Below are positions 318-21,583 of a DNA stretch of 64,000 nt, piece after piece. Position numbers and translations under genes: made by a program. Below the pieces are notes generated by a model, which saw only the letters and a list, made by a program, of their open reading frames with translations, was not told the DNA's origin and searched no databases. This DNA comes from a virus (taxonomy: Duplodnaviria > Caudoviricetes). The stretch lies in IMG/VR virus record IMGVR_UViG_3300015214_000031, positions 1 to 64,000 of that record; one strand, 5' to 3'. Numbering within the stretch: the first letter of the stretch is position 1; the number at the start of each line of letters is the position of its first letter.

Positions 318-361
318 TTAAATCAGGTATTGAATAGAATATAAAACAATACCTGATTTAA
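318..361. terminator. 15-bp perfect inverted repeat, probable terminator for the leftward arm
   Basis: ttaaatcaggtattg (318-332) / caatacctgatttaa (347-361), just downstream of the last minus-strand ORF. Confidence 0.6.
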
Positions 362-380
362 TATCATATGGTGTAATGAG

Positions 381-554
381 TTAATCATTAATCCAGTATC
401 GAACATAATAACTTGCCATATAATACTTTCCTTTCTTACTGATCCTATACCGATCATATGTTACCCTGTAATCTCTCTTGATTGGTCGTGACATAACTAC
501 TGCAATCAAATCAGTTTCATCTTTAATACCGCAAAAGCACTTAATCATTTCCAT
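381..554 (-). CDS. Small hypothetical protein, 57 aa (MEMIKCFCG...)
   Basis: Read manually (below the ORF-track cutoff). AGGA upstream; shares IKC[F/Y]CG with 690-941. Confidence 0.45.
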   Translation of the reverse strand: MEMIKCFCGIKDETDLIAVVMSRPIKRDYRVTYDRYRISKKGKYYMASYYVRYWIND

Positions 555-689
555 TTTTATTTTCCTATTGTAATTACAATGTTTGAAATGAAATCATTAA
601 TTGATTATGTTTATCCTACACAATTGAATAGGTTTTATAACAAACGCCAAACATAACTTACACACAATCACCCATATAACGACTATAAC

Positions 690-941
690 CTATTCAGTTA
701 ACATTTGAGCAATAACCTTTTTCAACCTTACACTCCTATCATAACCACAATAACATTTGATAATTCTAACTTTATCCATTTCATGATTATCATTAAGGTA
801 CAATGAATGAACTGTGTAATACGAATACACATTGTCTTCTTTGTGTTCGATAGTTTCAATCACATACTTTCCTTTCTTTGGTTTATTGAGAACTGCATAA
901 ACTTCACCATTCTTCCTAACTTTCCAATAAAACTCTTTCAT
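690..941 (-). CDS. Hypothetical protein, 83 aa
   Basis: ORF with AAGGAG RBS 9 nt upstream of ATG. Confidence 0.7.
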   Translation of the reverse strand: MKEFYWKVRKNGEVYAVLNKPKKGKYVIETIEHKEDNVYSYYTVHSLYLNDNHEMDKVRIIKCYCGYDRSVRLKKVIAQMLTE

Positions 942-962
942 AGTTTCTTTCTCCTTTCATCA

Positions 963-1208
963 TCATTTGAATTCGACCTTAAACTTACTTTGCACTCTAT
1001 TCATTTTTACCCGATTGTTATGAATCTTTTCCTGAACTTCTCTAAACAAATCAATCTGAACTGCTAGTGCATACGGTAAAAATGAATCCATATCTCTTTT
1101 TACCGGTAATTGCTGAATACTCCTTACTGCCGAAGAAATTAAATCATTGTGAAGTGTTTGAGGTATACCTGCATTAATTAATACTTCGATCATTTCTGAT
1201 TTATCCAT
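963..1208 (-). CDS. Hypothetical protein, 81 aa
   Basis: ORF with GGGGAGG RBS. Confidence 0.7.
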   Translation of the reverse strand: MDKSEMIEVLINAGIPQTLHNDLISSAVRSIQQLPVKRDMDSFLPYALAVQIDLFREVQEKIHNNRVKMNRVQSKFKVEFK

Positions 1209-1225
1209 ACTCTTTCCTCCCCAAT

Positions 1226-1262
1226 AAAAAAGGGTACAGGTAATAAAACCCTGTACCCTTTT
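1226..1262. terminator. Bidirectional intrinsic terminator-like hairpin
   Basis: aaaagggtacagg / cctgtaccctttt stem with A/T tails, just downstream of 1272-1853. Confidence 0.75.
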
Positions 1263-1271
1263 GATTAGTAA

Positions 1272-1853
1272 TTAACGATTGTAAACCGAAATGCTTTTGA
1301 GCGTGTTGAGGATATTGCTTGTCAACTGGTCCATATTCAACAAAATTTCCTTAATCCAATCTTTGGCTGATATACTGTTGATTTTGTTTTCTTGGACCGT
1401 TGAATTCATCAATGCCAATATTTCAGCACTAATTTTTCCTTCATTTTCGGCAATCATTTCATTGATTTGATCCAATTTCGATAATGCCGAAACATTGCCG
1501 GTTAAATCGTCATAGGCAATTTCGATGAATTCATCAAAACCCTTTTCCAGGATAACCCGTTCTGTATCAGTGAAAAGGTGAGATTCGTTTCCAAGGGACA
1601 AAACGATAATCTTTTGACAATCATTTATTACAGTGCTTTTGGACCGCTTCCAGAAAAGGTAAAGCGTTCCTTCCTCCGTCAATATCGGTGGATTATCGGA
1701 ATAGATGTTAACTGGTTTTCTCAGAACAAAACCTTTATCCTTTTTGGTGTTTTCCTGTTTTACTGCCGTATTTTCTTTCATAGTTTCTTTCTCCTTATTT
1801 TGATTTTCAGTGGAAGCTTTGCGAAGTACAGTGTTTTTCTTTACGATAGCCAT
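1272..1853 (-). CDS. Hypothetical protein (start revised to MAIVKK; in-frame internal RBS/ATG at 1781)
   Basis: The GAAGGAG RBS lies inside the track's MEGVRT leader, so the likely start is 1853. Confidence 0.7.
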   Translation of the reverse strand: MAIVKKNTVLRKASTENQNKEKETMKENTAVKQENTKKDKGFVLRKPVNIYSDNPPILTEEGTLYLFWKRSKSTVINDCQKIIVLSLGNESHLFTDTERVILEKGFDEFIEIAYDDLTGNVSALSKLDQINEMIAENEGKISAEILALMNSTVQENKINSISAKDWIKEILLNMDQLTSNILNTLKSISVYNR

Positions 1854-2663
1854 AGTTCTAACTCCTTCCATGTTTTGTTGGGTTATTGAATACCTGCTTT
1901 ATTCTTTGCTTCATTTTGGATAAAGCTTTTGAATCTTGCAAATTCATTCACTGGATTCAAAGCCTTTCCGAAGCATTGCTGGTAAAGCCAATTTTCATCC
2001 GATTCAGTAAATTTACCTTTGTTACCGATGAAATCCTTATCATCGGCAACAGTTTCGATCACTTCCTTTATATCGTCGCGTTCAATGTCAAAAATCTTTG
2101 AAAAGTAATTGATGCCTTCAACTTTGGCGTTAACTGATTCAACCGTTTTGTTTTTGCTGATAGTTTCCCATACCGATTCTGCAAACCGCTTGATATTGCG
2201 GTTTGCAATTAAACTGTTGTCCCTTTTCCAAACCCGACGAAGCATTTCATAAAAATCATCATAGTTGGTGAACGAATTTCCTGTCAGTTTTTCAAGCACT
2301 TCCTTGCCATTGTGCTTGATTTCATCTTGTTTTAAATTCCGTAAACATTCTAAAACTTTACTTTCTGGAAATTGCACTTTCCCACTTGTTTTGATTGTGG
2401 GCTTTTCAGTTTCCATCGTTTTGCTTGGTTCCTGTTTTACTTGCAGCGTGGAAACCGCTTTAGACAGCAGATCAATTTTGCTGTCCATTACAATCAAGCG
2501 TTTGTTAATTTCTTCAACCTGTGACCAAGTTACGAGTTTTCCAGGGGCAAAAGCTTCCAGTATTTCTGCTTTCGCTTGATTAATCGTTTCAACCAGATTG
2601 TCACTGTCACTTGCTTGTTTCTTTACGATAGCCATAGTTCTAACTCCTTCCATGTTTTGTTGG
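1836..2663 (+). repeat. 46-bp exact direct repeat (1836-1881 and 2618-2663) covering the RBS and first codons of two adjacent genes
   Basis: tttctttacgatagccatagttctaactccttccatgttttgttgg at both positions. Confidence 0.95.
1883..2635 (-). CDS. Hypothetical protein, 250 aa (starts MAIVKK)
   Basis: Long ORF with the same RBS cassette as 1272-1853. Confidence 0.75.
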   Translation of the reverse strand: MAIVKKQASDSDNLVETINQAKAEILEAFAPGKLVTWSQVEEINKRLIVMDSKIDLLSKAVSTLQVKQEPSKTMETEKPTIKTSGKVQFPESKVLECLRNLKQDEIKHNGKEVLEKLTGNSFTNYDDFYEMLRRVWKRDNSLIANRNIKRFAESVWETISKNKTVESVNAKVEGINYFSKIFDIERDDIKEVIETVADDKDFIGNKGKFTESDENWLYQQCFGKALNPVNEFARFKSFIQNEAKNKAGIQ

Positions 2664-2767
2664 TTAGTTCTAGCAACTAAAAGATTCCAAACTTCTAAAA
2701 GTTAATTCATACCTCCTTTCAGTGAGATGTTTAAACATTGCCGATTTAAGGCACCAAATCGGCGTTT

Positions 2768-2842
2768 CTAGGCACCAAAAACTCTAATCAGTACCCATGC
2801 ATACTCAAGGCAAATAATCCCAAAAAAAGCCAATTTAAGCAT
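2768..2842 (-). CDS. 24-aa hydrophobic peptide MLKLAFFGIICLEYAWVLIRVFGA
   Basis: GAAAGGGG RBS upstream of the ATG at 2842; single TM-like stretch; 8-bp hairpin (2740-2763) downstream. Confidence 0.45.
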   Translation of the reverse strand: MLKLAFFGIICLEYAWVLIRVFGA

Positions 2843-2861
2843 AATTAATCCCCTTTCGTTG

Positions 2862-3083
2862 TTAGAGATTAAACAATTTAATTGCTTTAGCAATTGTGAG
2901 TGTACCATGGTAATCTTTATCTCTGCCCATGGTGACCAGTACAAATGGTTTCCCTTTGTCTGGACAGTCAATCCATTCATAATTGAGATTATCACCAAAT
3001 GGGTTGTAAATGGTTTTAACACCAAAAAAATTATCTAGTTTCTTTATGTTCATATGCAATTTTTCAACTTTATTCATGACCAT
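2862..3083 (-). CDS. Hypothetical protein, 73 aa
   Basis: GGAGG RBS before the ATG at 3083 (start revised from 3116). Confidence 0.65.
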   Translation of the reverse strand: MVMNKVEKLHMNIKKLDNFFGVKTIYNPFGDNLNYEWIDCPDKGKPFVLVTMGRDKDYHGTLTIAKAIKLFNL

Positions 3084-3168
3084 TTTCCTCCATTGCGTGT
3101 TTAGGTTTACTCTCAATCCCCTGTAGCTCTTGGTTGCCGTTCAAAAACTCACATATAATGTAGATATA

Positions 3169-3197
3169 GATATAATAAGGTTTTCGGATATTGTCAA
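3169..3197 (-). promoter_or_regulatory. Leftward sigma70-type promoter
   Basis: TTGACA (3197-3192), 17 bp, TATATC (3174-3169), upstream of the leftward arm. Confidence 0.55.
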
Positions 3198-3502
3198 TAA
3201 TTTTTTTATCGTTTTTTTATATCAGGAGTGATTTTTTTATTGGGGATATGGTCTAAACCAAAAAATAATCCAGCGTGGAAAGGACCATTAAAAAAGAGCT
3301 GAAAAAATGAAAAAGTTCTAAAAAATGTCATTACTGGAAAAAGTGCCCGTAAACCCGCATGGAAAGCCAAAATTGCTTAGAATCGAAAAACTATTTTTTT
3401 CCGATACAGAATACGTCTGAAATTTAAAGTAGCTTAAAACGCCTAAAAATGGCCTTAAAATCAAAGTTAACCGAAAAACTTTTTTCAAAAGTGCCTACTT
3501 TT

Positions 3503-4015
3503 TGGCATACCTTTTGATTTTTTATTTTTGCCTTATTTTCTGGCATGGAAATTAAATTGTAATTGGCATTAATTTTGTATAGAGAAAAAGTTTACCTACT
3601 TGGCATGATTTTTAAACGGTAAGCGGATAAACTTCACTTTAACCGTTAATACATTTGTGCTATGATGTATCAAGTAATAAGGGTAATACATAAGTTTTTT
3701 AATGTTCTAAAAGTTAATTCATACCTCAAAAAAGTTTCTTCCACTAAGCATTTTTCCAGAGAAAAAATCGTATTATGGCATAAAGATTAAATCGTAAAAT
3801 CGAAGTAAATGGCATGGAAATAAATTTTACTTTGGCATAATTATATATTTTTAAAAAATCGTATATTGGCATACTTTTTATCATCTAAATGGTATGAAAA
3901 TTAAAAAGAAAATTACGAGTAAATGGCATGAACTTTATCATCTAAATGGTACTAACTTTGATATTACTAAAAGTATGCCAAGTTAACCCGATTTTTACAT
4001 GCTATTTTCATGCCA
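3503..4015. repeat. Array of 11 TGGCAT hexamers plus 2 TGGTA variants, mostly TGGCAT(A/G)-N4-TT
   Basis: Plus strand: 3503, 3541, 3564, 3601, 3776, 3810, 3833, 3867, 3924. Minus strand: 3975-3980, 4010-4015. Variants: 3890, 3947. Non-coding. Confidence 0.9.
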
Positions 4016-4225: not shown

Positions 4226-4270
4226 TGGACGTAAATTTCTATTGACATCATTTTTACGTCCATGTATAAT
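4226..4270 (+). promoter_or_regulatory. Consensus sigma70 early promoter with a flanking operator-like inverted repeat
   Basis: TTGACA 4242-4247, 17 bp, TATAAT 4265-4270; tggacgtaaa (4226-4235) / tttacgtcca (4253-4262) brackets the -35 box. Confidence 0.85.
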
Positions 4271-4319
4271 GTACTGATAATAACAAACAACCATTTAACT
4301 TATGAAAGGAGAAATGATT

Positions 4320-4583
4320 ATGATGAACATTTACAAGGAAGCATTGGAAGTTCAAGATGCAGTAAATCTTTCCGGTGTAGTTCACACATTTAATAAGGTA
4401 TTGGATTATATTTGGGATGAAGCAAGAGAAAAAGAATTGGGAACTGATTACGTTAATAATCATCCTGTTTCAATTCTTTTTGCAGATAAAATTAATCACT
4501 TGACTAAAATGCAAGATTGGAATCCATCTCGTATTACTGGTGCATATAGACAATGTATAAAACTTTCAAAGAAAGGAGAATAA
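4320..4583 (+). CDS. Hypothetical early protein
   Basis: GAAAGGAG RBS at 4304-4311; start revised to 4320. Confidence 0.75.
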   Translation: MMNIYKEALEVQDAVNLSGVVHTFNKVLDYIWDEAREKELGTDYVNNHPVSILFADKINHLTKMQDWNPSRITGAYRQCIKLSKKGE

Positions 4584-4587
4584 GATT

Positions 4588-5034
4588 ATGAATACTTATG
4601 CATTTGTTGTGGGAAACTTTCTGGAAAAGAATAATGAAATCAAAGGAACAATGTATTTTGTAACCAAAGCAAAGAATTTCAAGTCTGCTTCGAAAAACAT
4701 ACCGTCTTACCAAGGATTATATTTTTATCTTATTTACCAACTTAATTATTTGGATGTTATTGATGATTTCTGGACAAGATATTATCTAGTCAATTTGGGT
4801 GGTAACGAGAAAACAGGGATAGTCAATGCTGACAGTGAAAAAGAGGCATTGGATTTTGCCATTGATTTTTATGAAGAAGAAAACATGAACCATGTATTCA
4901 TTGATCCTCCTGAAAATCTTGTAACTGAAAAACAATGGGAGGAATGGAATAGCACACATTTGAGTGGGGGAAATTATGGATTATTTCTTGCTGCTGATTT
5001 AAATGAAATAATTATTAAAGAGATTAAATTCTGA
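4588..5034 (+). CDS. Hypothetical early protein, 148 aa
   Basis: ORF with AAAGGAG RBS. Confidence 0.75.
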   Translation: MNTYAFVVGNFLEKNNEIKGTMYFVTKAKNFKSASKNIPSYQGLYFYLIYQLNYLDVIDDFWTRYYLVNLGGNEKTGIVNADSEKEALDFAIDFYEEENMNHVFIDPPENLVTEKQWEEWNSTHLSGGNYGLFLAADLNEIIIKEIKF

Positions 5035-12440: not shown

Positions 12441-15095
12441 GTGTTTTATTTTCCAGAAGAAAACAAGAGTGAGGAAAAACCAAAAAAGAATATAAAAGAA
12501 TATAATTGTCAGACCTGTGGATTATATAAAAAAGCCCATACACCTAAAATGCAAGTTACCATTGGAAAAGATTACAATGGGTTGGTTATTGTTTCTGATT
12601 ATCCAGGAAAAAATGAAGATGAAAAAGGAATACCATTCGTAGGTAAATCAGGAAACCTCCTACGAACAATTGCATTAAAAAACAAAATCAATCTTGCTAA
12701 GAAATCAGCCGTTACTTATGCACTATCCTGTAAACCAGACAGTAAGAAGCCTTCTGAGACATTATTCAAATGTTGTAAATCTTTACTTCATAAAAGAATA
12801 AAACAACTAAAACCCAAACTGATTATTTGTTTAGGTGAACACGCCGCCAATGCAATTATTCGATCAAGAAAAAAACAGGCAATATCAAAACTCAGAGGGA
12901 GATTGATTCCTAACTATGAGTTTGATTGCCTTGTATATATTTCCTTCAGTCCTTCTGAATTATTTTATAAAGATTCAGAGGATAGATTTGATAAAACCTT
13001 GGAAACAAGTTTCCGATGGGATATGGAAAAAATCTTCAAACTTTGGAATACAAAACTTTACAAAAGAAAGGTAGTAAAGAAAACCCTTGAGAAAAGAAAA
13101 ATACTAGAAGGAATTCAATTAAAGGAAATAAAAACAAAATCAGAACTGGATAAGGTTATTGAAGAACTATATAAGAATGGATCATTTGCTTTTGACTATG
13201 AAACAACTAATTTAAAACCATATGATGATGACTTTCAAATCTACTCTTGTCAATTTGGAATAAAAGATAAAGCATGGGGGGTATACTTTCCACATTTTAA
13301 AGATATCCAATATTTAAAATCAACTATCTACAGGATATTAAGTGACCCTGAAATCAAAAAGTATATCCAGCATGACAAATTTGAAGAAGTTTGTTCCAGA
13401 AGATTATTAGAAAAACCAGGAGAAAGAATACTCCAAAATTCATTCTGTACTATGGTTGCTAATCATATTGTTGAAGCAAAACAAAAATGCTCCAACTTGA
13501 ATTTCATGAACTTGGTAAGATTTGGAATTCCTGAGTATGATGAAAAAACACATAACTTTTTAAAACCAAAATCTAAAACGGATAAAGTAAATAGAATTCA
13601 TTTGGTAAAACCTGATGATTTGCTTCTTTATGGGAACCTTGATGTAATAACAACTTATAACCAAGGAATTGTTTTAGATAATAATCTTCTTAATGAAGGA
13701 AAATACAGATGGTGTTATGAATTAGTTCATGATGCCCATTTGAATTTTGCAGATGTTGAAGAAGAGGGATTTCCAGTTAATAAAAAGAAACTAGATGAAT
13801 TAGATAAATACATAACTGATTTGATGGACGATCTTATTGAACAAATAGGCAAAATTCCAGAAGTAAGAAGATTTTTAAAGAAAATAGTTAAGGAGGGCTT
13901 CAAAGAAAAGAAAGATGGTCAGGGAGGGTTACTTGGATCATTTTTAAGAAGTCCTAAAGAACTCCAAAAATTTCTTTATGAAGAATTAAAACTTACTCCT
14001 ATAAAACAGACTAAAACAGGAAACTCAACCGATCAGGATGTAATTACAGAACATGCAGAAAAAGATAGTGTTTTATTCTGTAAATTACTTGCTAATCACA
14101 GAAAACTTTTTAAGGCAAAAAGCTCATACATTGATAATATAAGAAAAAATTTGAATGATGATGGAAAAGTTCACGGGTCAATAATGGTATTAAATGAGAC
14201 GTTTAGAAGCTCAATTGCAGATCCTCCATTACAAACAGTGCCCAAGCATGGAAGTATTATTGAAAATGTTCCCTGGAAAATCATTAGGGAAATATTTGAA
14301 TTAGAGGATACTGAATATCTTCTTGGTCAAGTTGATATGTCAGGATGGGAATTGACTGTAGGAGCAGCAGTATCGGGAGATAAGGCTTTCATCGAAGATG
14401 TAAACAATATTGATATCCATGCTTATTGGGCAAAAAGATTATTTGGATTTGATAAAACACTTGAAGAAATAAAGAAACTTTATAAACCATATAGGCAAAT
14501 ATCTAAAAATGTTTTTGTATTTGCTGGAATGTATGGAGCAATATTTACAAGTATTGCAAGAGACATGAGAACATATGAAGAATATCTTGAATATTGTAAA
14601 AAGATTTACAGAAAATCAAAAACAAATATGGAATTTATGGATTGGGTTATTCCTTTTTCAGAAAATCATGTTGAAAATTGTCAGAAAGATTTCTATGGAA
14701 AGTATAAAAGACTTCGTGAATGGCAGGATGAAGAAGTTACTCTTTATTATCAAAATAAATATGTAGAACTTCCGATGGGATTTAGAAGACATTATCCATT
14801 AACAAGAAACGAAATAATTAATACTCCTATTCAGGGAACTAGCTTTTTGATTATTCTTGATTCATTCAATAAAGTCATGACTGAACTTAAAAAACGTAAA
14901 ATGAAATCAAAAGTTATTTTGGAAACACATGATGATATGACATTCAAAGTCTATAAACCTGAAACTTTGGATTTAATTGAAATGGTAGATAATATAATCT
15001 TGCACCCACCGTTTGATTTTATGAAGGATTTGAATGTAAAATCAGAGTGGACATTTGGAAGATCATTAAACAAAATGAAAGAAGTTCAATTTTAA
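12441..15095 (+). CDS. polA: Family A DNA polymerase with N-terminal family-4 UDG-like domain and 3'-5' exonuclease
   Basis: UDG: CQTC, DYPG..ED..G.PFVG.SG. ExoI: FDYETT. Motif A: DMSGWEL. Motif B: RQISKNVFVFAGMYG. NTPIQG. Motif C: ETHDD. Confidence 0.95.
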   Translation: MFYFPEENKSEEKPKKNIKEYNCQTCGLYKKAHTPKMQVTIGKDYNGLVIVSDYPGKNEDEKGIPFVGKSGNLLRTIALKNKINLAKKSAVTYALSCKPDSKKPSETLFKCCKSLLHKRIKQLKPKLIICLGEHAANAIIRSRKKQAISKLRGRLIPNYEFDCLVYISFSPSELFYKDSEDRFDKTLETSFRWDMEKIFKLWNTKLYKRKVVKKTLEKRKILEGIQLKEIKTKSELDKVIEELYKNGSFAFDYETTNLKPYDDDFQIYSCQFGIKDKAWGVYFPHFKDIQYLKSTIYRILSDPEIKKYIQHDKFEEVCSRRLLEKPGERILQNSFCTMVANHIVEAKQKCSNLNFMNLVRFGIPEYDEKTHNFLKPKSKTDKVNRIHLVKPDDLLLYGNLDVITTYNQGIVLDNNLLNEGKYRWCYELVHDAHLNFADVEEEGFPVNKKKLDELDKYITDLMDDLIEQIGKIPEVRRFLKKIVKEGFKEKKDGQGGLLGSFLRSPKELQKFLYEELKLTPIKQTKTGNSTDQDVITEHAEKDSVLFCKLLANHRKLFKAKSSYIDNIRKNLNDDGKVHGSIMVLNETFRSSIADPPLQTVPKHGSIIENVPWKIIREIFELEDTEYLLGQVDMSGWELTVGAAVSGDKAFIEDVNNIDIHAYWAKRLFGFDKTLEEIKKLYKPYRQISKNVFVFAGMYGAIFTSIARDMRTYEEYLEYCKKIYRKSKTNMEFMDWVIPFSENHVENCQKDFYGKYKRLREWQDEEVTLYYQNKYVELPMGFRRHYPLTRNEIINTPIQGTSFLIILDSFNKVMTELKKRKMKSKVILETHDDMTFKVYKPETLDLIEMVDNIILHPPFDFMKDLNVKSEWTFGRSLNKMKEVQF

Positions 15096-16244: not shown

Positions 16245-17201
16245 ATGGATGTTACAAAGTATCTACGAGCAGGATATCCAATTATCCTCATTGAAACAAT
16301 GGAAGTCAAAAGAGCAGTACAGTCTATCATTACATCACCATTCACTATCAATAATAATGGAGAACAAGTAGAAATCAATCCTAAGCTCTACAAATGGAAT
16401 ATCTATGATGGTATCTATGGAGAGGAAAACTTTCCTGATATACAAGAACCATTGGGAGCAATTCAAAAAGCTGTTGAGGATTTCAATATCTCTGTTCTTG
16501 TTCTTGAAAACTTTGATTACTTCATTCAACCTGAAAATGAGCTTGCTTTCCCAATATCACAAAGAATCCTTAATGATTTTCAAAAACTGAAATCCAATAA
16601 TGTTTTGCTTTGTATTGTAGGTACAGATCATAAATGTTTGTCCTGCTTGGATAAAGTAATTACAGTATTGGATTTTGATCTTCCTAAAAAGGAAGAGTTC
16701 AGGCAAAAAGCAAAGGAGATGGCAGAGGAAAGAAGTATTGATTACAAAGAGGATACTGCTGATGCTTGTTCTGGATTGGGATTAGAAGAAGGTGAAAATG
16801 CTCTAGCTCTTTCCATTATTGAAAATGATGGTGTAATGGATAAAAGCACTGTAATGAGAATGAAAAGAGAAATGATTAGAAAAACAGGCTTTATGGATTT
16901 TATGCAACCTGAACCACTGGAAAATATAGGAGGACTTGAAAACGCCATTGAATATATTAATCTAAGAAAAATGGCATGGTCTACACCAGGATTTCCAAAA
17001 TTGAATTCTGTATTCCTTATCGGAGTAACAGGATGCGGTAAAACTTTATTTTCCAAAGTCCTCTCTTCCATATTTGATTTTCAATTAATTCTTTGGGATG
17101 TAAACGGATGCAAGGGATCACTTGTAGGTGAAACAGAGAAAAATATGAGGGTATCTACAAAGACAATTGATGCATTTGGTCCATGTATAATTCTCGTGGA
17201 T
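16245..17201 (+). CDS. Ycf46/SpoVK-like AAA ATPase, exon 1
   Basis: Degenerate first AAA domain; IGGLE; Walker A GVTGCGKT; ends at CIILVD, halfway through Walker B. Confidence 0.85.
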
Positions 17202-17511
17202 TAAGATAAAACTTTGTTCACGTTAAACTCTTCTAATTGCTGGAAACTCCTTAGAGCCTGATAAACTACAACATAATCTGAAAAGATAATTGTGAATGTA
17301 TAAAAATTATCAGGATTGGACAATCAGCAGCCAAGCACCTAAGATCATTTGATTATGGTGAAGGTTCAGAGATCATCCCAAAAGGGAGTAGACTTCAAGT
17401 GAAGTCGAAATGGAGAGCAATTGAATACATTGTATTCAATTGAAGATATGATCCGATCTTACTAGAAATAGTAAGAGGAATAACGGAAACGGTTATTCCG
17501 TAACATAGATG
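17202..17511 (+). ncRNA. Group I self-splicing intron (IA2-like, 310 nt, no endonuclease ORF)
   Basis: P aattgctggaaa 17235; Q aatcagcagc 17322; R gttcagagatcat 17364; S aagatatgatcc 17443. P1 pairs cgtggat with gttcacg, giving U.G at the splice site. Terminal G at 17511. Removal restores ILVD|EIEK. Confidence 0.93.
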
Positions 17512-18063
17512 GAAATTGAAAAAATATTTTCTGGTGCTTCTGGAAATGTTCAAGATACAAGTGGGGTAAGTCAGGGAATTCTTGCTCATTGGTTAACTTG
17601 GATGAACGAAACTGAAGGAAAAACGGATAGAATCATTGTAGTAACTGCTAACAGTCTCACTGGAATACCTCCTGAGTTTATTGGAAGATTCGATACTGTT
17701 TTCTTTGTTGGATTTCCCAATAACCAAGAAAAAAAGCAGATCATTGAAATTATGAATAAACGATATGGGAGTACACTACCCACAAACAATGAATTTGTAA
17801 ATAGCTTGGATAGATGGACCGGAAGAGAGATTGAAAGATTGGCTAGGGAATCTCTTTTTTATAAAATAGAGGATGCAATCAAATATATTCCTCTTGTAAA
17901 AAATACAAAAGAAAAAGAAATTAGAGAAATGGAGAAATTTGCTACTCAAGTAAGACATGCAAGTAAACCAGATGAAAAAAAGGAGGGAAAAAGGTCAATA
18001 TTAACTGATTCAGATAAAGAGAAATTCAAGCAAAAACTCAAGATTAAAAAGAAGGAGGATTAA
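17512..18063 (+). CDS. Ycf46/SpoVK-like AAA ATPase, exon 2 (spliced product 502 aa)
   Basis: EIEK completes Walker B; VVTAN sensor-1; PPEFIGRFD arginine finger; WTGREIE. Confidence 0.85.
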   Translation, partial: EIEKIFSGASGNVQDTSGVSQGILAHWLTWMNETEGKTDRIIVVTANSLTGIPPEFIGRFDTVFFVGFPNNQEKKQIIEIMNKRYGSTLPTNNEFVNSLDRWTGREIERLARESLFYKIEDAIKYIPLVKNTKEKEIREMEKFATQVRHASKPDEKKEGKRSILTDSDKEKFKQKLKIKKKED

Positions 18064-18467: not shown

Positions 18468-18893
18468 ATGTCCCATATAGTTGAAATGGATATTGAGATT
18501 AAAGATTTAGAGTGTTTGAAGACTGCTTGTGATGAGCTTGGATTTACCTTCATTGAAGGACAAACAGAATATAAGTGGTTCGGTCAGTGGGTGGGTGATT
18601 CTCCAATGCCTGATGGATTAACTGTTGAAGATTTAGGAAAATGTGACCATGCTATTCAAATACCGGGGTGTGATTATGAAGTTGGAGTGGTTAAAAAGAA
18701 AAAAGGAGTTTATACACTTCAATACGATTATTGGAACTCAGGAGGATTGGAAAAGAAAATAGGAACCAATGCAGGACCAATTAAACAAGAATATGCAGCA
18801 CAGGTAGCAATTAAAGAGGCAAAAAGAAAAGGATATTTAGTGAATAAAACAAAAGATAAAAACAAAATAAAAATAAGGATTACTGTGCCATAA
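18468..18893 (+). CDS. DUF1257 (Ycf35-like) protein
   Basis: MSH...I.IKDLECLK.AC.ELG, YEVG, Y.LQYDYW, IKQEYA. Confidence 0.8.
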   Translation: MSHIVEMDIEIKDLECLKTACDELGFTFIEGQTEYKWFGQWVGDSPMPDGLTVEDLGKCDHAIQIPGCDYEVGVVKKKKGVYTLQYDYWNSGGLEKKIGTNAGPIKQEYAAQVAIKEAKRKGYLVNKTKDKNKIKIRITVP

Positions 18894-19072
18894 TGACAAC
18901 CAAAGAAATCATAGAGGAACGAATTAATGAAACAAAGGACACGATCTCCAACTTTGAGAAACTAATGGAAAAATACCCAAATGATTTTGTATTTCAAGAA
19001 TTACTAAATAGATTAAAACAAACATTGATTCTTTTAGAAATGGAAAAGGAAAAGTATGACAAAAATAATTGA
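18893..19072 (+). CDS. Small helical protein, 59 aa
   Basis: Read manually; TAATG coupling. Confidence 0.5.
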   Translation: MTTKEIIEERINETKDTISNFEKLMEKYPNDFVFQELLNRLKQTLILLEMEKEKYDKNN

Positions 19073-19259
19073 TGTGATAATTGATGAAAATGGGGAAGTA
19101 AAAATTGAAACCGATGGATTTACTGGAAAATCATGTATTGAAGAAAGTCAATTCATAAAAGACGTAATGGGAGTAGAAAAAGCAAGGCATTTGAAACCTG
19201 TATATTTTTCTACTGAAAAAAATAAAACAAAAAAGAAACACCTTAATATTTGTGGGTAA
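19056..19259 (+). CDS. DUF2997 family protein
   Basis: I.V.IDENGEVKIET.GFTGKSC...LG.E....LKP.YF. Confidence 0.85.
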   Translation: MTKIIDVIIDENGEVKIETDGFTGKSCIEESQFIKDVMGVEKARHLKPVYFSTEKNKTKKKHLNICG

Positions 19260-21497: not shown

Positions 21498-21583
21498 GGG
21501 GGCATGGTGGAACTGGCATACACAACGGTTTTAAGCACCGTTGCCTTAGTGGATTGAGGGATCGATTCCCTCTGCCCCCACCA
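21498..21583 (+). tRNA. trnL: tRNA-Leu(UAA)
   Basis: Acceptor gggggca/tgccccc plus A and encoded CCA; anticodon arm acggt-ttTAAgc-accgt; long variable arm; T-arm gaggg-atcgatt-ccctc. Confidence 0.92.

Follow-up and report, generated by a model that had tools for sequence, protein, structure and literature searches.

How does a phage make an AAA ATPase from a gene that is cut in two between the Asp and Glu codons of its Walker B motif? The question is raised by a 64-kb stretch of viral DNA, here called the window, which is the first part of a 74.7-kb IMG/VR viral contig with an estimated completeness of about 69%. An initial annotation, made from the letters of the window, had proposed that a group I intron lies between those two codons. 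The proposal is upheld by the score of the region against the Rfam group I model, by the exact restoration of the AAA domain when the segment is removed, and by covariation in two sister introns that were found independently. On these grounds, we consider it very probable that positions 17202 to 17511 are a functional, ORF-less group I intron of the subgroup IA type, residing in the gene for a phage AAA ATPase of the classical clade.

Results

An ATPase gene divided within Walker B

The upstream reading frame (positions 16245 to 17204) encodes 319 amino acids that end in ...CIILVD and are followed directly by a TAA stop codon, and the downstream frame (17509 to 18063) encodes 184 amino acids reading M-EIEKIFSGAS.... 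The last codon of exon 1 is GAT (Asp) at 17199 to 17201, the TAA at 17202 to 17204 is in frame with it and is formed by the opening three bases of the intron, and exon 2 opens with GAA ATT GAA AAA (EIEK) at 17512 (Table 1). The Pfam AAA profile (PF00004) is divided at exactly this point, with profile positions 1 to 64 matching residues 256 to 319 of exon 1 and positions 65 to 130 matching residues 1 to 67 of exon 2. PHROG 8638 is likewise matched by exon 1 over positions 24 to 371 and by exon 2 over positions 372 to 546, giving a seam at 371/372. When the two parts were aligned with 11 uninterrupted homologs of 490 to 530 amino acids, exon 1 extended to column 390, the Walker B Asp, and exon 2 resumed at column 391, the Glu, with neither gap nor overlap at the seam. 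In the same alignment, both exons keep an open frame and every near-invariant residue of the family. Removal of the intron gives a protein of 502 amino acids (319 + 183) that is collinear with its uninterrupted relatives, and the exact profile seams bear out the earlier joining of ILVD to EIEK in a product of that length. The full-length relatives in the databases are all 470 to 530 amino acids long and all uninterrupted.

The protein has one AAA domain, with Walker A (GxxGxGK[ST], here GVTGCGKT) in exon 1 and Walker B (hhhhDE) running across the splice junction (IILVD/E), and the domain is preceded by a private N-terminal domain of about 210 amino acids. A profile of the ATPase homologs matches the D-domains of VCP-like/Cdc48/p97 proteins with E values of 1e-50 to 1e-44, and the AAA domain is of the classical clade. 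Some of the homologs are named SpoVK/Ycf46/Vps4-type by JGI (COG0464). Genes with DUF1257 and DUF2997 domains lie downstream, and the ATPase gene is the first of a Ycf46-like/DUF1257/DUF2997 module. Elsewhere in the window, an 884-aa ORF (12441 to 15095) combines a UDG-superfamily N-terminal domain (Pfam UDG, 1.1e-20) with a 3'-5' exonuclease and a family A DNA polymerase, and the sole tRNA gene (21498 to 21583) encodes a tRNA-Leu(UAA) whose variable arm is long (Rfam, 51.9 bits; ARAGORN).

The insertion point falls inside the most conserved peptide of the ATPase family, [ILV][DE]E[IVL][ED]Kx[FL][AGS]G, which was chosen automatically by the locus search. By an established rule, homing elements last where the site is unable to drift, and an insertion into the best conserved part of the gene agrees with this rule. 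The initial annotation had also expected that gene callers would report a broken gene. Indeed, for the exon 1 part, the 319-aa product forms a protein cluster of its own in the databases and is found on three contigs. Four short database proteins (P0014, P0020, P0022, and P0024) were considered as further calls truncated by an intron and were rejected, being N-terminally cut fragments with Walker B intact.

Boundaries and fold of the intron

A search with Infernal and the Rfam models had been suggested at the outset. Scanned alone, the region matches RF00028 over the full model (1 to 253) with 82.1 bits against a gathering threshold of 50 (E = 2e-21), and a second search returned the same match. 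When the entire 64-kb window was scanned with Rfam, whether at the gathering threshold or at E <= 0.01, the intron was missed; a scan of a region of about 500 nt finds it. A joint scan of two related loci discussed below, L016 and L026, gave no intron match, while scans of short regions were positive. These blank scans are losses in the speed filters of Infernal and not evidence against the intron. The length of the intron is not divisible by three, and the ORF list of the window places no ORF within it. Its RNA folds with a stability 5.5 standard deviations greater than that of dinucleotide shuffles (z-score, -5.5).

The predicted structure is given in Table 1. The wobble pair of P1 at the 5' splice site and the G that ends the intron are both as the initial annotation described them. 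The loop of P1 (17202 to 17215) has a small AAG/CUU stem, and there is no P2 in the window intron, where UUAAA alone stands between P1 and P3; like its short P10, this counts against a functional intron. The core helices P3, P4, P7, P7.1, P7.2, and P8 are also where they had been placed; however, U17376 can belong to P7 or to P7.1 but not to both. P7 keeps a G-C pair that aligns with the guanosine-binding pair of the family. P7.1 and P7.2, two hairpins inserted after the 5' strand of P7 and ahead of the 3' strand of P3, are the signature of subgroup IA. From this architecture we infer that the intron, which also has a long P5 extension, belongs to subgroup IA, and the label "IA2-like" that it had been given fits.

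Table 1. Coordinates of the ATPase gene, its neighbors, and the predicted elements of the intron, with the guide pairings of the two sister introns
Feature	Position in window	Strand	Description
Exon 1 of AAA ATPase gene	16245..17201	+	319 codons; private N-terminal domain, Walker A GVTGCGKT, Walker B to Asp (IILVD)
Group I intron	17202..17511	+	310 nt, no ORF; opens with in-frame TAA, ends with G17511 (omega-G)
Exon 2 of AAA ATPase gene	17512..18063	+	183 codons + stop; from Walker B Glu (EIEK), remaining AAA domain, basic tail
DUF1257 gene	18468-18893		DUF1257 match 9.5e-06
DUF2997 gene	19056-19259		DUF2997 match 5.7e-09
P1	17195..17222	+	Exon CGUGGAU 17195-17201 / guide GUUCACG 17216-17222; U17201.G17216 wobble at 5' splice site; MFE and centroid fold
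P10, guide part	17213..17215	+	UUU; can pair with GAA 17512-17514 of exon 2, 3 bp
P3	17228-17233 / 17412-17417	+	CUCUUC / GGAGAG; Rfam alignment, fold, three-allele comparison
P4-P5 domain	17238..17329	+	P4 UGCUGG 17238-17243 / UCAGCA 17324-17329
P5	17248-17250 / 17318-17320	+	UCC / GGA
P5a, long extension	17257-17264 / 17307-17314	+	CCUGAUAA / UUAUCAGG; inner hairpin; compensatory changes in both sister introns
P6 domain	17331..17364	+	P6 CC 17331-17332 / GG 17363-17364; Rfam alignment and three-way alignment
P6a	17336-17339 / 17357-17360	+	CACC / GGUG
P6b	17343-17347 / 17350-17354	+	GAUCA / UGAUU; missing from both sister introns
P7	17371-17375(6) / 17448(9)-17453	+	GAUCA(U) / (A)UGAUC; Rfam alignment
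P7.1	17376-17379 / 17384-17387	+	UCCC / GGGA; fold, three-allele comparison
P7.2	17391-17396 / 17401-17406	+	GACUUC / GAAGUC; compensatory changes (GGAUUC/GAAUCC in both sisters)
P8 hairpin	17418..17442	+	17418-17428 / 17432-17442; 11 bp, 3-nt loop
J8/7 and P7 3' strand	17443..17453	+	J8/7 GAAGAUA = family consensus; Rfam consensus UgAAGAUAUAGUC vs UGAAGAUAUGAUC
P9	17458-17464 / 17469-17475	+	CUUACUA / UAGUAAG; fold, three-allele comparison
P9.1, lineage-specific hairpin	17477-17484 / 17492-17499	+	GGAAUAAC / GUUAUUCC; P9 and P9.1 span 17458..17499
Guide of L016 intron			P1 AUACUGGAU / GUUCAGUAU; P10 GAGAUUG / UAAUCUU (7 bp)
Guide of L083 intron			P1 GAUCGAU / GUCGAUC; P10 GAGGU / ACCUU (5 bp)

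Sister introns at the same codon boundary

Loci of the ATPase family were collected from viral contigs by an alignment-based profile search, and the best 80 of 397 relatives were inspected. Intron-less alleles, which the initial annotation had proposed to look for, make up nearly all of this set, with 78 of the best 80 loci uninterrupted and 2 interrupted by tblastn comparison; one of the two search patterns spans the insertion site, so that interrupted alleles are undersampled in these counts. The nearest intron-less alleles known are at about 50% protein identity or below, and an "empty site" in a closer relative was not found. A search for related loci with exon 1 alone found nothing.

The proposal that the same insertion site might be occupied in homologs was also fruitful, as homologous introns occur in two other phages. 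At locus L016, on a 74.9-kb contig, 935 nt separate query residues 308 and 309, which is the same D/E boundary, and the 5' part and the 3' end of this insertion align with the window intron. Where the window has a bare P8 hairpin, the P8 region of L016 (4167 to 4819, 653 nt) includes most of a 195-aa ORF (4265 to 4849) that matches Pfam HNH (2.8e-07) and 14 PHROG HNH families. The RF00028 match of the L016 intron is split by this ORF into parts of 48.4 and 20.4 bits. About 11 codons at the end of the HNH ORF (L016, 4819 to 4852) overlap J8/7, the 3' strand of P7, and P9, so that protein-coding and catalytic-core constraints fall on the same bases. The second sister, L083, was found through the P9.1 hairpin and lies on a 96-kb contig. 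It has an ORF-less intron of 297 nt at the same boundary (ILID/EVDKALAG), with an RF00028 score of 89.2 bits. The statement that the intron has no homing endonuclease is right for the window allele, and the L016 intron at the same site has an HNH gene in P8. The sister introns end in AAAAAG and CAUUUG, and the terminal G is kept in all three alleles.

L016 and L083 come from the same IMG sample (3300025012) and are on different phage contigs of about 75 to 100 kb; their exon 2 proteins are 74% identical. Besides the window's own record, which such scans may omit, scans of IMG/VR and the JGI metagenomes with the P9.1 sequence found only the L016 and L083 alleles, and the metagenome scan found both of these again in other assemblies. 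The scans with P9.1 (viral and metagenome contigs) and with P7.2-P3' (viral contigs) gave no ATPase-borne member beyond L016/L087 and L083/L086. Locus L026 (IMGVR_UViG_3300031965_000030, 1405 to 3726) was considered as a second intron site, near Walker A, and was rejected. The ATPase ortholog there is one continuous ORF of 773 amino acids with an HNH intein in the P-loop of Walker A (GVPG/CLTGD...IVHN/SGKS; Pfam Intein_splicing, 2.5e-12; HNH_3, 2.7e-06).

Covariation of helices and guides

The window and L016 alleles are 45% identical in ATPase protein, 56% identical in exon DNA, and 76% identical in intron DNA, and L016 and L083 are 78% identical in exon 2 DNA and 84% identical in the intron. 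Across the three alleles, the introns are thus 75 to 84% identical against 56 to 78% for exon DNA. Structural constraint alone could explain this conservation of the intron above the exons. The flanks of the junction are, by eye, no more similar between alleles than the rest, and so there is no sign of recent homing among the window, L016, and L083 alleles.

The 66 base pairs that can be aligned in the three alleles gave 197 testable cells, all of which are standard pairs. When the 3' partners were slid by 1 to 3 columns as a control, 25 to 44% of cells paired, a comparison that favors the true partners because the structure was drawn from the window sequence. Compensatory double changes, the counts of which rest on L016 and L083, occur in 20 of the 66 pairs, against 0 or 1 with slid partners. 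Several of the compensatory changes are in P3 (UCCCCU/GGGGGA in L016). The initial annotation had read P7 as a compensatory variant of GACUA/UAGUC, and both sisters have exactly GACUA/UAGUC at the aligned columns, making the GAUCA/UGAUC of the window a double-compensated form with two compensatory pairs. The guide bases of P1 and P10 track synonymous and nonsynonymous exon differences in each host, and the U.G pair at the splice site is always kept. A guide that keeps rematching drifting codons makes a dead intron unlikely and argues for splicing that has been long maintained in three phages. We take this as strong indirect evidence that splicing is active in all three.

The endonuclease gene is absent from the window intron and its P10 is short, with 3 bp against 5 to 7 bp in the sisters, as might be expected of a decayed remnant that no longer splices, in a phage whose ATPase gene has become a pseudogene. 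We judge such decay to be very improbable. Both exon frames are open with their near-invariant residues intact, the core scores well above the RF00028 threshold, and the allele can be followed through samples dating from 2018 to 2024. Moreover, helices preserved through compensatory changes across three lineages, together with a guide that tracks the exons, require continued selection for splicing.

Another way to read the two frames is that no RNA is spliced and that a 319-aa polypeptide with Walker A and a 184-aa polypeptide form a split ATPase, the RNA between them being a mere spacer. This is suggested by an in-frame ATG, formed by the last three bases of the intron (17509 to 17511), that opens the 184-aa ORF. 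However, the ATG is not conserved, and given the AAAAAG and CAUUUG ends of the sister introns, it looks like a coincidence. No ribosome-binding motif is visible upstream of it, a single catalytic motif would have its Asp and its Glu on different chains, and a covarying ribozyme fold with an exon-matched guide would be left without a role. A split enzyme is thus, in our view, even less probable than decay, and an intron that is removed by splicing is the reading we retain.

Related introns and evidence from sequencing runs

The P4-P5 stretch of the three alleles matched more than 117 viral contigs among the matches listed, and when the gene region was compared with GenBank phages by blastn, 241 records matched, each of them by way of the intron core. 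Of the 79 further loci with the core stretch, among the matches listed, none lies in this ATPase gene. The nearest relatives outside the ATPase alleles, again among the matches listed, are introns in capsid genes, at locus L138 and in Bajarodcaudo virus 1 (PQ006092.1). One of the L138 copies is 70% identical to the window intron over 289 of 310 nt and is the closest full-length relative among the matches listed. PQ006092.1 is the best GenBank match, with 77% identity over the core, and the match lies amid fragments of a capsid gene, next to a gene annotated as "intron associated endonuclease". These introns have the same P4-P5 core stretch, and some copies are ORF-less while others stand beside endonuclease genes. 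They differ from the window intron in host gene, which encodes a capsid protein (Pfam Phage_capsid_3), in their guide sequences, and in the P9.1 hairpin. The window intron thus belongs to a phage intron family that is very common and has here colonized a further gene.

At L138 (IMGVR_UViG_3300035670_002820, 340 to 3000), the major capsid gene is cut by four introns of this family within 2.5 kb, leaving pieces that match positions 2 to 74, 76 to 123, 124 to 236, and 243 to 340 of the Phage_capsid_3 profile, and one of the introns adjoins an HNH-like ORF. L099 (1350 to 5460) likewise has four core copies in 7 kb.

The intron-bearing allele is present in DNA contigs of landfill and soil metagenome runs from several studies, dating from 2018 to 2024. 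Its recurrence in these contigs, and that of the exon 1 product on three contigs, argues that the insertion is not an assembly artifact. None of the runs found to contain this phage is on record as RNA, and three wastewater runs labeled cDNA share small parts of its sequence. In two of these three, X8 and X10, which are probably DNA and so bear neither way on splicing, positions 17244 to 17354 are deeply covered by the intron cores of other organisms, and no 17201-to-17512 joint was seen; the joints in wastewater runs that replace the P5 extension are other introns. A widespread core might have been wrongly joined into the contig, given that 17244 to 17354 is shared with very many phage introns and that, in wastewater runs, other organisms cover it thousands of times over. 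This idea can be given almost no credence, since contigs of separate studies bridge the 5' junction (X4, 17098 to 17348) and the 3' junction (X8, 17422 to 17572) with 0 differences, the guide matches the exon ends of its own ATPase gene, and the homologous introns of two further phages occupy this codon boundary as well.

Discussion

Proposed splicing and homing

We infer actual splicing of the window intron, and its dependence on guanosine, from the established chemistry of the group I family. The primary transcript would fold into the P3-P8 and P4-P6 core, and the internal guide (17213 to 17222) would pair with the last seven bases of exon 1 to form P1, with the U.G pair of 17201 and 17216 marking the splice site. 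A free guanosine bound at P7 would then attack after U17201. The guide would next hold exon 2 through P10, and G17511 would enter the G site, leading to ligation of the exons as GTGGAT/GAAATT. The outcome would be a restored Walker B Asp-Glu pair and the 502-aa ATPase, whereas unspliced RNA would be translated only as far as the TAA at 17202. That splicing "gates" ATPase production, as the initial annotation put it, holds only trivially, in that unspliced RNA is not read past this stop codon, and nothing indicates that splicing is regulated.

We regard the intron as a selfish element that has taken up residence where the gene is best conserved, and the window copy would be inherited with the phage. 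The HNH gene in P8 of the L016 intron indicates that the intron lineage is or was mobile, and we propose that it once moved, or still moves, with the HNH homing endonuclease kept there. The endonuclease gene would either have been lost from the window copy or have been missing from the start. The interrupted target site should make the ATPase gene of this phage immune to the HNH endonuclease.

Comparison with known elements

Bacillus phages SPO1 and SP82 have group I introns in their DNA polymerase genes that encode the HNH endonucleases I-HmuI and I-HmuII. The present case is similar by description in that a phage intron of the IA type interrupts an essential enzyme at a strongly conserved catalytic segment, with an HNH gene inside the intron in the sister L016. 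It differs in its host site, Walker B of an AAA ATPase, and in that the window copy is without an endonuclease gene. Small ORF-less IA2 introns are found in orf142 of Staphylococcus phage Twort, and the td, nrdB, and nrdD introns of T4 have GIY-YIG or HNH-type genes in other peripheral loops. With these the window intron shares, again as judged by description, a compact self-splicing core with a P7.1/P7.2 insert, an in-frame stop codon shortly after the 5' splice site such that the full-length protein comes from spliced RNA only, and, in the case of Twort, the ORF-less state; the host genes are different.

Novikova et al. 2016 (PMC4760082) describe selfish elements that bring an HNH nuclease, or a homing nuclease of another type, into the nucleotide-binding catalytic motifs of ATPases. 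The L026 intein in Walker A matches the pattern of inteins in ATPases described there. An intein is removed at the protein level, whereas the window intron would be removed at the RNA level, and the latter lies at the D/E boundary of Walker B. With an intein in Walker A and an intron in Walker B, both catalytic motifs of this ATPase family are targeted by homing elements. It is tempting, though we think it rather unlikely on present evidence, to see these motifs as a standing battleground of homing elements, in which an ORF-less intron is kept as protection from the endonuclease of coinfecting relatives, itself an agent of interference competition between phages, and is not a passive passenger. 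The HNH-bearing L016 and the ORF-less L083 alleles were in the same sample, which is the setting that such competition would need.

The initial annotation named no precedent for an intron in a Ycf46-like ATPase, and a full-text literature search likewise turned up no published group I intron for this ATPase family or for Walker B of a phage AAA ATPase. Precedents exist for the element, its mechanism, the type of endonuclease, and insertion into a catalytic motif. The novelty lies in the host gene and site and in the series of three alleles.

Implications

Gene callers split this ATPase, and the truncated 319-aa product of exon 1 is already in protein databases. The blank cmscan of the whole window, in which an 82-bit RF00028 match was missed, would have looked like a refutation of the intron and is a warning for annotation pipelines. 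Where a standard Rfam pass over a contig misses such an intron, pipelines undercount introns and misstate the gene content of the Ycf46-like/DUF1257/DUF2997 module. It is likely that group I introns in AT-rich phage contigs are undercalled by default pipelines. The three alleles form a compact natural series of the life cycle of a homing element, with the endonuclease present in one and absent from two, and with guide sequences retuned to the codons of each host. Without any change in principle, they add one more host gene to the phage genes that group I introns have colonized.
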